64,000 nucleotides of DNA, taken from assembly GCF_000026545.1 (NCBI RefSeq), contig NC_011601.1; one strand, written 5' to 3'. Below, one piece after another: positions 19,668-31,495 of the stretch. The DNA comes from Escherichia coli O127:H6 str. E2348/69. Lineage in GTDB: Bacteria > Pseudomonadota > Gammaproteobacteria > Enterobacterales > Enterobacteriaceae. Each line of letters begins with the position of its first letter. The stretch's first letter is position 1. The notes beneath the pieces are model-generated. The model did not search any database. It was not told the origin of the DNA and was given only the letters and a program-made list of their open reading frames with translations. The position numbers were made by a program, and so were the translations under genes.

Positions 19668-19840
19668 GATGAGCATTCAGATAGTGGTTCACGCGCACGG
19701 GTTGCGCACCGCCGGAGTAAGGATTTACTGAGGCTAGCGACGCCATCATAACGAGCAAAAAGTGCGATCGTCAAAGAAGAATCGTGAGGAAATGCTGCAT
19801 TGCTGACATTTACGCCAGCAATGCAGCGCAAAAGAACTTT

Positions 19841-22109: not shown

Positions 22110-23546
22110 TCAGCGTTTGTAACCCCCGCCCAACGCACCAGTGAGTTGAATGGAGGCATCCAGCCACTGCCCTTGCAATAACAGGCCATTGGCCCGCTCA
22201 CGCAGCGCGGGGATTCTGGCTTCGCTAACGCGGGAACCCGCAATGATGCCCGCGTTAAAGCGCGCCTGCGCAAGACCTACTACACGCAAGGCATCGCGCT
22301 CAATTTGCGCCTGATGCTGGTTTTTCTCCGCCAGTGTCTGAACCTGACTGGCTGCCTGCGCCACGTCATTCACCGCTTCAACCACCGCTTTGTTGTAGCT
22401 GGCGATAGACAAGTTGCTTTCGGCTTTTGCGATATCGAGGTTGGCGTTAAGACGACCACTATCGAAAATGGGTAGCGTCAGGCCTGCCGTAACGCCCATT
22501 TGCTGCGCGGAATGACGGAACAGATCGCTTAAGTGCAACGCATCCTGTTGCAGGAAGGCCATCAGGTTGATGTCAGGATAAAATGCCGCTTTTGCCGCAT
22601 CAATAGTGCTTAACGATGACTCAACGTACCAGTGCGCCGCCTGCAAATCTGCCCGCCGGGCCAGTAAGGAGTACCCCAGTTCATCAGGAAGCTGGCTTGC
22701 CACTTTCGGCAACGCGACCGGATTAAGCTTCAATGCCTTTGTCTGGTGATTTGTAAGTGCACTTAACCGTGCCTCAATAATTTTCATTTTCCCCGCGACA
22801 TCATTGAGCTGCTGCCGGGTTTTGCTGGCATTAATATCGGTTTCCACACCTTCAACTGAAGAAGTAATCCCGTTCTGATATAGCTGGCGATCGGTCGCGA
22901 TAATGGTGTTCTGCTCTTTTTCGATTTGCTGCAAGACCGTGTTTAACGCCGCCTGGGTTTGCCACTCCCAGTACAGACGGGCTACGCTGCCAGCCAGCAA
23001 TTGGCGGGTTTGCTCGCGTTCCGCCGCCCGTGCTTTAACCGTACCCAGGCGAGCAGTAACCTCCGCCCGATTCTTTCCCCAGATATCGAGATGCCAGCCC
23101 GCCGTTAAGCCAAAAGTACCGTTGGTGTACCACGGACCGGTCGTACCTGCGGCCGGATCGTTCAGAGCAAACGGCCCCATTAAGCCTTCTGCCGACATTT
23201 TTTGCCGCTCCATATCCGCAGAAAAGTCGAGCTGCGGACCATCCTGAGTGGCAACTGCCTTCGCCTGGGCTTCAGCCAGCTGAATGCGCTGTTCAGCCAC
23301 CTGCATATCCGGTGCGCTCTGTAGTGCGTTATTAATTAAGGAAGTGAGTTGATTATCGTGATACCCCAGCCACCATTGGCTGTCTGGCCAACCATTTTTC
23401 AGCGCCGTGGGTAATACGGTGTCAACTTGTGCAGCGGGCGTTTGCTGGCTTAACGCCTGGCGGGTTTCATGCATAGGCGCACACCCGGCCAGCATCAGTA
23501 ACAGCGAAAAACAGGCGATGGCGGGATAAAAGGAATCACGATTCAT
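22110..23546 (-). CDS. mdtQ: Outer-membrane efflux lipoprotein (OprM/NodT-like); the frame is intact in this window
   Basis: Lipoprotein signal MNRDSFYPAIACFSLLLMLAGC; open frame of 478 aa with no internal stop. Confidence 0.8.
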   Translation of the reverse strand: MNRDSFYPAIACFSLLLMLAGCAPMHETRQALSQQTPAAQVDTVLPTALKNGWPDSQWWLGYHDNQLTSLINNALQSAPDMQVAEQRIQLAEAQAKAVATQDGPQLDFSADMERQKMSAEGLMGPFALNDPAAGTTGPWYTNGTFGLTAGWHLDIWGKNRAEVTARLGTVKARAAEREQTRQLLAGSVARLYWEWQTQAALNTVLQQIEKEQNTIIATDRQLYQNGITSSVEGVETDINASKTRQQLNDVAGKMKIIEARLSALTNHQTKALKLNPVALPKVASQLPDELGYSLLARRADLQAAHWYVESSLSTIDAAKAAFYPDINLMAFLQQDALHLSDLFRHSAQQMGVTAGLTLPIFDSGRLNANLDIAKAESNLSIASYNKAVVEAVNDVAQAASQVQTLAEKNQHQAQIERDALRVVGLAQARFNAGIIAGSRVSEARIPALRERANGLLLQGQWLDASIQLTGALGGGYKR

Positions 23547-23769
23547 GGGGGAATAATCAGGTAAGAAAAGGTGCGCGGAGATTACCGTGTGTTGCGATAT
23601 ATTTTTTAGTTTCGCGTGGCAATACATCAGTAGCAATAAAACGACATATCCAGAAAAATATACACTAAGTGAATGATATTCGCCGATTTATCTTAATCGT
23701 TTATGGATAACGGCAAAGGGCTTCGTTTTTTCCTATACTTATTCAGCACTCACAAATAAAGGAACGCCA

Positions 23770-23853
23770 ATGAAAATTATACTCTGGGCTGTATTGATTA
23801 TTTTCCTGATTGGGCTACTGGTGGTGACTGGCGTATTTAAGATGATATTTTAA
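23770..23853 (+). CDS. yohP: Small membrane protein, 27 aa
   Basis: ATG 23770; MKIILWAVLIIFLIGLLVVTGVFKMIF is a single hydrophobic helix; below the ORF-track cut-off. Confidence 0.7.
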   Translation: MKIILWAVLIIFLIGLLVVTGVFKMIF

Positions 23854-24240
23854 AAATCAGATATGGCATATAAGTTGTCAGGTCAGGAACTCGATATTTT
23901 GTGTACTTGATTTGCAAACAGCTCCGGTGTTGGTGGCGTCAAAATCGCTGAAGCGTTCCCCGAAGGCCGGGGCAGCCCACATGGATGTGGGCTGAGGGCG
24001 CGTCTTACAAGGACGTTACCTCGCGCCCGACCCAGTAGCCGAAGGGGATAAGCTGAAGGTACCGCGCAGCGGAGATTTTGTTCGCCAGAGCCCGGGGGTG
24101 CAGGGGGAGGAGGCGATTGTCCTCCCCCTGCGCGCTCCTTGCGCCAGTGGCAATATGTGGCTTAGCTCATGAAAGGAGCGCAACAAGATGATGAAGCTGA
24201 ATAAGCGATTCATTGTCTCAGATAAGCTGCGATTCCACTA

Positions 24241-25191
24241 TTATCGTAGCTTATCGATATCAATTGCCTGAATAGCCCTTGCAATATCAGGGGAATTATT
24301 CAACACCCGAACATGCTGAAATAATTCCGTTGCTTCATCGTATTCTTTACGCAAATAACTCAACCACTGTTTAATCCGCGCAACGTGATATAACCCGGTA
24401 TCGCCCTGCTTTTCCAGACGGGTATATTTTTGCAGCAAAGCAACCACCTCCGGCCACGGCATTCGCGGTTCGTTATATTTCACCACACGGCTCAGGTTGG
24501 GAATATTGAGCGCCCCGCGACCAATCATCACTGCGTCGCAGCCGCTGATCGCCATGCATTGTTGCGCACTCTGCCAGTCCCAGATTTCACCGTTGGCAAT
24601 CACCGGAATATTAAGCCGCTGGCGAATCTCGCCAATCGCCTGCCAGTCAATATGTTCCGCGCGGTAACCCTGCTCTTTTGTCCGCCCATGTACTACCAGC
24701 TCCGTAGCGCCAGCCTGTTGCACCGCATCGGCGATTTCAAATTTCTTCTCACCGCTGTCCCAGCCCAGACGCACTTTTACGCTGACAGGCAAATGCGCCG
24801 GTACAGCTTCGCGCATCGCTTTTGCACCCTGGTAGATGAGTTCAGGATCTTTCAGTAACGTTGCCCCACCACCGCTACCGTTAACCGTTTTCGACGGGCA
24901 GCCGCAGTTAAGATCCACGCCCCAGGAACCTAACTCCACCGCACGGGCGGCGTTCTCTGCCAGCCACTGTGGGAACTGCCCTAACAACTGCACGCGCACC
25001 AGCGTACCGGATGGTGTCCGGCTGGCATTTTGTAGCTCAGGGCAAATGCGATGAAAGACTTTTACTGGCAGCAGTTGATCCACCACGCGGACAAACTCGG
25101 TGATGCACAGATCGTAGTCGTTAACTTCGGTCAGTAATTCCCGCACCAGAGAGTCAAGTACACCCTCCATCGGAGCCAGTAACACACGCAT
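24241..25191 (-). CDS. dusC: tRNA-dihydrouridine synthase C
   Basis: Start set at the Met giving [13 protein letters not shown]; the exact start is uncertain by a few codons. Confidence 0.85.
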
Positions 25192-31315: not shown

Positions 31316-31495
31316 CACATCCGGCATTTAGTTCCTGTCGCCGGATGCGGCTTGAACGCCTTATCCGGCATACAAAACAATATAAATCAGTATGTTGTGC
31401 TCATTGTAGGCCGGATAAAACGCGCCAGCGTTGCATCCGGCATTTGGTTCCTGTCGCCGGATGCGGCGTGAACGCCTTATCCGGACTACAAAACC
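31316..31495. repeat. BIME cluster of three REP elements in alternating orientation
   Basis: CGCCGGATGCGGCTTGAACGCCTTATCCGGCATAC, GTAGGCCGGATAAAACGCGCCAGCGTTGCATCCGGCA and CGCCGGATGCGGCGTGAACGCCTTATCCGGACTAC. Confidence 0.9.

Follow-up and report, generated by a model that had tools for sequence, protein, structure and literature searches.

What occupies the 387 bp between yohP (23770-23853, + strand) and dusC (24241-25191, - strand) in Escherichia coli O127:H6 strain E2348/69? The interval is GC-rich and dense in hairpins, and RefSeq annotation places nothing under it. We analysed it within a window of 64,000 nt, the whole stretch of DNA considered here, to which all coordinates refer unless another record is named. 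An earlier note, made from the letters of this DNA, had reported no assigned feature and had proposed, among other things, an undescribed repeat family. The E2348/69 genome matches the window over the segment at 100%. BLAST against K-12 TRIP1a (RRS-lysO) aligned 23893-24195 at 90.4% identity over 303 bp, and against K-12 TRIP1c it aligned 23930-24201, in inverted orientation, at 88.2% identity over 272 bp. The best K-12 match of the segment lies between lysO (ybjE) and aqpZ, with a partial copy between putP and efeU. On its yohG/mdtQ side the segment is flanked by yohP and on the other by the dusC (yohI) 3' end, which is the location of TRIP1c. Judged by homology at 88-100% identity, the segment between yohP and dusC is beyond doubt TRIP1c, which is RRS-dusC. 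Taken as a whole, the explanation that we favour, and hold with good confidence, is a dusC-proximal TRIP1/RRS copy that acts at the DNA level as a polymerase block and is present here as an allele in what would be the less active orientation.

The TRIP1 family was first listed by Rudd in 1999 and was identified as such in Li et al. 2024 (PMC10888264), and TRIP1a and TRIP1c are the RRS-lysO and RRS-dusC ('replication risk sequences') of Pham et al. (PMC10287960, PMC11194060). RRS-dusC is also treated in a 2026 preprint. With a catalogue entry dating from 1999 and functional studies since 2023, the element is not new as a discovery. The earlier note was right about a structured repeat family, but 'undescribed' did not hold, the family being TRIP1/RRS (PMC10888264, PMC10287960, PMC11194060); because of this, the match to a known repeat family that the note had named as evidence against its reading is what we found. 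Likewise, the absence of an assigned feature is true of RefSeq annotation but not of the literature on TRIP1/RRS. What goes beyond the published accounts is the dusC inversion with its G-quadruplex (G4) on the leading-strand template, the direct-repeat arrangement of the lysO and dusC copies, and a resemblance to TwoAYGGAY and CsrA targets.

TRIP1/RRS is a GC-rich structured repeat of ~275-300 bp with 1-5 copies per E. coli genome. It occupies five E. coli loci with presence/absence polymorphism (PMC10888264): 1a between aqpZ and ybjE, 1b between putP and ycdN with a 125-bp internal deletion, 1c between yohG and yohI (the mdtQ/yohP-dusC interval), 1d between alx and sstT, and 1e between copA and ybaP. 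Both orientations are known for 1a and 1c, and 156 rearrangements, mainly 1a x 1c inversions, have been reported (PMC10888264). The copy-number search suggested in the earlier note bore out the repeat family: among the 5426 complete E. coli genomes, 5425 had TRIP1-matching places, the median number being 3 per genome. A second copy is absent within the 64-kb window. Elsewhere in the neighbourhood, mdtQ (22111-23547, -) is intact in the E2348/69 record and a pseudogene in K-12 MG1655.

With its less conserved edges, as delimited by BLAST and the literature, the whole element spans 23905-24205, its G-rich 'sense' strand being the + strand. The core common to all full-length copies, whatever their locus or orientation, runs from 23912 to 24186 (+; 275-bp matches at 79-98% identity). 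It draws on copies of types 1a, 1c and 1d from Escherichia species and from Pseudocitrobacter, and the 17 copies aligned come from E. coli, E. albertii, E. whittamii, two Escherichia without species names and two Pseudocitrobacter species. The 5' domain (23926-24099, +; 200 bits with our covariance model R1) is TwoAYGGAY-like, with a long closing helix around two GGA-loop hairpins. In the consensus structure the closing helix, P1, pairs a 5' arm at 23934-23956 with a 3' arm at 24064-24087 (both +) through 20 pairs. With 5 outer pairs and the inner helices inside, it has the large P1 typical of TwoAYGGAY, and compensatory changes in P1 were seen in comparison with a second Pseudocitrobacter element. 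Within it, hairpin 1 (23973-23994, +) consists of the 10-nt arms CAGCCCACAT and ATGTGGGCTG with 2 nt between them and carries the invariant tip ACAUGGAUGU, with GGA at 23983-23985. Hairpin 2 (23996-24028, +) is formed by GGGCGCG at 23996-24002 with CGCGCCC at 24022-24028 and has the tip UUACAAGGACGU (UUACAGGGAUGU in K-12), with GGA at 24011-24013. The loop sequences of the two hairpins are ACATGGATGT and ACAGGGATGT.

Downstream of the closing helix, a G-quadruplex-forming tract identified by G4Hunter, GGGGGTGCAGGGGGAGGAGG (K-12: GGGGGTGCAGGGGGCGGCGG), lies at 24094-24113 (+). It is overlapped by a perfect 12-bp hairpin (24100-24131, +), whose arms GCAGGGGGAGGA (24100-24111) and TCCTCCCCCTGC (24120-24131) enclose an 8-nt loop. 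The 3' helix (24132-24181, +) pairs GCGCTCCTT at 24132-24140 with AAGGAGCGC at 24173-24181 around a variable loop, an inverted repeat conserved among copies. All three perfect stems that had been described from the letters (hairpin 1, hairpin 2 and the 12-bp hairpin) are present where they had been placed. The minus-strand open reading frame described along with them (24016-24213, 65 aa, with a low-complexity translation) also exists. We rejected it as a gene, since other copies carry 1-2-nt frame-breaking indels in the equivalent stretch, so it is not a conserved reading frame, and the translation is of low complexity.

Several smaller features were noted at the right edge of the element. At 24173-24271, a Shine-Dalgarno-like AAGGAG, itself paired within the predicted 3' helix, is followed after 8 nt by ATGATG, which opens a 27-codon reading frame (24188-24271, +) antisense into the dusC 3' end. 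An ATG occurs within 2-7 nt after ...GGAGCGCAAC in five of seven distinct flank contexts, and the downstream reading frames, of 3-27 codons, are not conserved; the AAGGAG/ATGATG frame at the element edge is probably incidental. Across the dusC stop codon, a 13-nt inverted repeat at 24221-24255 (GATAAGCTGCGAT / ATCGTAGCTTATC, 92% complementary) is present in the window-type allele and absent from the K-12 allele, and no T-run follows it.

We next consider folding and selection on pairing. Folded as RNA, the + strand of the 387 nt reached -172.1 kcal/mol against -135.4 +/- 6.1 kcal/mol for shuffles (z = -6.0), and the - strand gave z = -4.4. With DNA parameters, 23905-24205 folded to -74.9 and -72.3 kcal/mol on its two strands (z = -6.2 and -6.8), about equal between strands. 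Model R1, built from the TRIP1 5' domain, aligned 19 matches in which 97.6% of the cells pair. Both-side changes affected 23 of 55 base pairs in this alignment, compared with 7.9 +/- 2.1 in shuffles and 2-5 in slid-partner controls, a count to be read with the alignment being fitted to R1 and the sequences representing few independent lineages. The search for compensatory changes proposed in the earlier note thereby gave a positive answer. In hairpin 1, the stem CAGCCCAC/GUGGGCUG (also written CAGCCCAC/GTGGGCTG) is replaced by CGACGCGC/GCGCGGCG under a constant loop in 1d-type copies and in a putP-flanked contig (L028), and the same copies have G-C changed to A-U at the base of the hairpin 2 stem. 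In the 12-bp hairpin, two C-to-A changes on one arm of window-type copies are matched by G-to-T changes on the other, and pairing is kept. Read from the aligned copies, these last changes show selection for pairing, which competes with G4 formation on the same strand and is a point against the polymerase-block model. The mean column identity of TRIP1 is 89-94%, and such conservation together with compensatory base-pair changes argues for purifying selection. As to which strand folds, variable pairs included G-U in seven cases versus A-C in five, singling out no strand; four fixed G-U pairs are located at helix ends and may be prediction artefacts.

Could such a structure simply serve the 3' ends of the convergent yohP and dusC, as a terminator or as an mRNA-stabilising cluster of hairpins? 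The element is located 40-50 bp downstream of both stop codons; yohP reads into its sense strand in this allele, dusC converges on it, and the sense strand shares its direction with one flanking gene in either allele of the dusC locus (in K-12 it is the dusC strand). However, no stem is followed by a U-tract on either strand, as the earlier note had pointed out in setting intrinsic terminators aside, and a terminator scan of 23600-24400 was empty on both strands. The element also precedes lysO and runs antisense to aqpZ and putP, and a conserved multi-helix fold of 300 bp exceeds the needs of a terminator. We regard a 3'-end function as highly improbable.

A REP element had likewise been discounted from the letters, and we agree: there is no sequence or model match to REP at the site, and naRNA4 matches lie elsewhere in the window. 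At gathering thresholds, Rfam models hit the whole window only with naRNA4 and Peptidase-S11. The naRNA4 hit (REP-derived nucleoid-associated RNA; 31409-31486, -; 77 bits, above threshold) is an ordinary REP/BIME cluster, and the Peptidase-S11 RNA motif lies at 19672-19752 (-; 72.8 bits, threshold 34.8).

As the segment is RRS-dusC, published work on RRS bears directly on its role. RRS were described as 222-bp GC-rich repeats ~650 kb on either side of dif, and in K-12 the G4 tract GGGGGTGCAGGGGGCGGCGG belongs to the lagging-strand template of both copies (PMC10287960, PMC11194060). The K-12 tract has been demonstrated by experiment to form a G4 (PMC11194060). RRS block Pol I, Pol II and Pol IV in vitro, and in K-12 they give rise to lagging-strand gaps of ~2 kb that load RecA and SSB; the RecA/SSB peaks in ssGap-seq vanish on RRS deletion, and a relocated element acts at its new site, so the effect is transferable (PMC10287960, PMC11194060). 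A double RRS deletion was obtained only with a ~200-kb amplification, and deleting or inverting both RRS altered supercoiling genome-wide (PMC10287960, PMC11194060). According to the 2026 preprint, placing the G4 strand on the leading-strand template lowers the frequency of lagging-strand gaps but does not abolish them. All of these functional experiments were carried out in K-12 or in vitro.

The K-12 G4 tract has its counterpart in the window copy. Within the 64-kb window, G4Hunter peaks highest at 24094-24113 (1.92), and the G runs of this tract do not vary among the 17 aligned copies. As in TRIP1/RRS generally, the G4 tract is on one strand only, GGGGGTGCAGGGGGAGGAGG being on the + strand with all G runs retained. 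In the model that we favour, unwinding of the duplex would allow the GC-rich strand to form hairpins of very high stability as well as a G-quadruplex at GGGGGTGCAGGGGG(A/C)GG(A/C)GG. The folded strand would then block DNA polymerases and leave a lagging-strand gap of ~2 kb, to be filled by SSB and RecA, as the K-12 data indicate. Such gaps, in the proposal of the published authors, would relieve topological stress near the terminus domain. TRIP1 copies also serve as substrates for homologous recombination.

The orientation of the window copy departs from this scheme. It is inverted compared with the K-12 copy between the same two flanking genes. As the flanking 30-60 bp also differ, the two dusC forms differ as alleles across the entire intergenic region and are not related by a clean flip. 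The GC skew of the + strand is negative throughout the window (cumulative -0.56) and gene order is as in K-12; together with the inversion, this indicates that the G4 strand is the leading-strand template, the reverse of K-12. A G4 strand on the lagging-strand template is a trait of the K-12 arrangement and not of the TRIP1 family, for which both orientations are on record (PMC10888264). At the E2348/69 dusC copy, the lagging-strand template holds only the C-rich complement. Judging by the inversion and single-molecule experiments that have been published, we infer that gaps would form less often here than at K-12 dusC or at the E2348/69 lysO copy. The latter is in K-12 orientation, so the two full-length copies of E2348/69, at lysO and dusC, are direct repeats.

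This arrangement is not a peculiarity of one strain. Between yohP and dusC, 1999 of the 5426 complete genomes carry the window-type copy and 3309 the K-12-type copy; between aqpZ and lysO, the K-12-type copy was found in 4027 and the inverted one in 896. Among complete E. coli genomes, ~37% have the flipped dusC copy, E2348/69, CFT073 and O157:H7 being examples. All four combinations of lysO and dusC orientation exist, represented by K-12, E2348/69, strain 120899 (hit H31 with H65) and strain E69 (L020 with L021), and in strain E69 both G4 strands are on leading-strand templates. E. whittamii and Escherichia sp. E1V33 have the same arrangement as E2348/69, which may for that reason be the older one. 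Complete E. coli genomes with one copy also occur, for instance strains A20 (hit H5) and SF-468 (hit H54). The single match of SF-468 is on the strand opposite to K-12-type hits, consistent with a flipped dusC copy; if this is borne out, such strains would be naturally occurring carriers of a single RRS, its G4 located on the leading-strand template. Variability of orientation was already reported by Li et al. (PMC10888264), and neither that paper nor the RRS papers cited here relate it to the lagging-strand G4 model. Varied orientations and single-copy genomes sit uneasily with a strict requirement that a G4 lie on the lagging-strand template or that the copies form an inverted pair. The natural variety of dusC and lysO orientations may be useful to RRS researchers.

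Other copies show how the element changes and where it occurs. In TRIP1b and the L016 copy, the interior has been lost between CCGGGG...GCAG repeats; hairpin 1 is lost from the L039 copy, and 11 nt between TGCGC repeats from the L038 copy. Recurrent independent deletions between short direct repeats are expected from slippage across a stable structure. Contig L028 has a full-length TRIP1 adjoining putP, which confirms that TRIP1b arose in place by deletion. L028 (583 bp, from a Bacillus sp. assembly) and L010 (432 bp, from a Pseudobutyrivibrio assembly) are short low-coverage contigs with E. coli putP at 99-100% beside TRIP1, and are almost certainly Escherichia contamination. When GTDB species representatives were scanned for exact 18-mers, the repeat turned up in Escherichia species and Pseudocitrobacter only, other hits being chance or unrelated; a scan of this kind misses more diverged enterobacterial copies and is no test of the wide conservation claimed in the literature. 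In Pseudocitrobacter faecalis and P. vendiensis, a TRIP1-like copy occupies an additional locus, between mdlB and glnK(-amtB). There it stands head to head with a much diverged element, ~40 bp apart (L014 1868-2400, L031 5311-5850), which has the architecture of TRIP1, including the G-rich hairpin after the closing helix, and is essentially missing from E. coli (one partial match in 5426 genomes). In this head-to-head pair each DNA strand bears one G-rich strand, whatever the direction of replication. TRIP1 has eight plasmid matches, and the one examined carries a chromosomal efeU-putP segment. In the alx-sstT interval, K-12 carries another GC-rich palindromic segment of ~210 bp, of the CTCTCCC...GGGAGAGGG type (L044 3047-3444 compared with L043 1554-2168). 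K-12 has no empty site for TRIP1d there, and the alleles diverge from the last alx codons onward.

This distribution also bears on whether TRIP1 is the relic of a mobile or selfish repeat kept by hitch-hiking and gene conversion, with stalling and inversions as side effects. Five polymorphic loci in E. coli plus mdlB-glnK in Pseudocitrobacter, both orientations at the same two loci, decayed copies with internal deletions and the multi-copy state of TwoAYGGAY in Psychromonas ingrahamii would all suit such an origin. Against this, allele comparison revealed whole intergenic segments that differ, without terminal inverted repeats or target-site duplications; no associated transposase was found, and plasmid matches are few. 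The 89-94% mean column identity with compensatory changes, and the published conditional essentiality in K-12 (PMC11194060), also speak against a relic, which we consider quite unlikely. A MITE or IS-derived element was rejected, as inverted ends, duplications and empty sites are missing at lysO, dusC and alx-sstT.

The polymerase-blocking model, although it is the one we prefer, gives no account of the constancy of the tips ACAUGGAUGU and ACA(R)GGAYGU over covarying stems. The Rfam covariance-model search that the earlier note had recommended gave no hit at the site at gathering thresholds, TwoAYGGAY being found below threshold: RF01731 matched the window copy at 23939-24078 (+) over the full model with 27.5 bits, against a gathering score of 43. 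Because of this score, we do not file TRIP1 as a TwoAYGGAY member. Other full-length TRIP1 copies tested gave 26-33 bits, again over the full model and always on the G-rich strand. The diverged Pseudocitrobacter element scored 49.2 bits, above the gathering score, and was also detected at full length by the TRIP1-only model R1 (L014 2173-2344, 35.6 bits; L031 5625-5796, 33.3 bits; E ~1e-4), providing an intermediate sequence through which TRIP1 connects to TwoAYGGAY. Loop 1, AUGGAU, fits AYGGAY; at loop 2 the window copy reads AAGGAC and other copies read AGGGAU or AGGGAC, a departure at the Y position. A TwoAYGGAY seed member from Psychromonas ingrahamii, where the original alignment has the motif in multiple copies, contains the loop ACAGGGACGU, a variant also present in TRIP1. 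Model scores and loops together make the TRIP1 5' domain a probable diverged relative of TwoAYGGAY. The TRIP1/RRS papers cited here make no mention of Rfam, CsrA or RNA.

CsrA binding had been proposed for TwoAYGGAY by RMfam. Compared with the CsrA SELEX consensus RUACARGGAUGU, the tip CCACAUGGAUGU matches at 9 of 12 positions, and UUACAAGGACGU in the window and UUACAGGGAUGU in K-12 match at 10 and 11 of 12, respectively. The two GGA motifs are 28 nt apart, and one CsrA dimer can bridge 10-63 nt. The segment might, on such features, be read as a structured RNA of the TwoAYGGAY family, perhaps a 3' extension of the yohP mRNA, whose GGA-loop hairpins bind a dimeric RNA-binding protein such as CsrA; a structured non-coding RNA and a protein-binding platform had been among the suggestions of the earlier note. 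The G-rich-strand-only matches to RF01731, the recovery of the diverged element by both models, the ACAGGGACGU variant in the TwoAYGGAY seed, the agreement of the tips with the CsrA consensus at 28-nt spacing and the RMfam proposal are all consistent with this. We nevertheless think it unlikely. The window copy is under the Rfam threshold. A promoter scan found no + strand site, and its single minus-strand site (23869-23842) was no more than shuffles give, so that the sense strand has neither a promoter-like site upstream nor a terminator. Its orientation to neighbouring genes varies, and in K-12 it is antisense to aqpZ and putP; in Pseudocitrobacter, head-to-head elements ~40 bp apart leave scant room for promoters. 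SELEX hairpins mostly have 4 base pairs or fewer, as opposed to the long GC-rich stems of TRIP1, and the G-U versus A-C test (7 and 5 variable pairs) favours no strand. In the part of the CsrA CLIP-seq data of Potts 2017 available to us, the gene table marks dusC and ybjE as not bound, and yohP, aqpZ and putP have no entry in the supplement.

The DNA-level block and recognition of the tips could be combined. In a speculative and rather doubtful extension, TRIP1/RRS would be the enterobacterial branch of TwoAYGGAY, and its ACA-N-GGA-Y-GU tips would be recognised by a specific ligand, CsrA in the case of a transcript or else some protein with affinity for single-stranded DNA hairpins. If this were true, RRS gap formation, or a separate role at the RNA level, would hinge on recognition of the tips and not on the G-quadruplex alone. 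The link would supply an orphan Rfam motif with an experimentally tractable member, could be of use to those who study RRS, and raises the question of what recognises the loops. More generally, the case illustrates that a reading of the letters alone can flag a real and functionally important element that RefSeq leaves blank.

Among known systems, K-12 TRIP1c/RRS-dusC (NC_000913.3 2229122-2229394) shares locus, family, helices and G-run pattern with the window copy, at ~88-89% identity over ~256-272 bp. The window copy differs in its opposite direction relative to the flanking genes, in the 30-60 bp on each side, and in its G4 tract, which has A for C at two positions, with T for G on the other hairpin arm. 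Similarity to K-12 TRIP1a/RRS-lysO extends further, beyond the core by ~19 bp on the left and 9 bp on the right, although the locus is another one (aqpZ-lysO). REP/BIME elements (naRNA4 model) are, like TRIP1, GC-rich intergenic palindromic repeats of E. coli; however, TRIP1 has no sequence or model match to them, is ~10x longer and occurs in 1-5 copies, not hundreds. The pilE G4 of Neisseria gonorrhoeae, cited by the RRS authors, is likewise reported to be a gap-triggering G-quadruplex, but its sequence is unrelated and it serves pilin antigenic variation. CsrA-sequestering RNAs of the CsrB/CsrC type resemble TRIP1 in presenting GGA in RUACARGGAUGU-like hairpin loops at a spacing compatible with a dimer, whereas TRIP1 has two clear sites instead of many, long stable stems, and no promoter, terminator or gene-level CLIP signal. 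TwoAYGGAY, like TRIP1, has a long closing stem around two adjacent hairpins with ACA-N-GGA-Y-GU tips and is multi-copy in some genomes; TRIP1 adds a 3' part made of the G4 tract and the GC hairpin, which lies outside the description of the motif.
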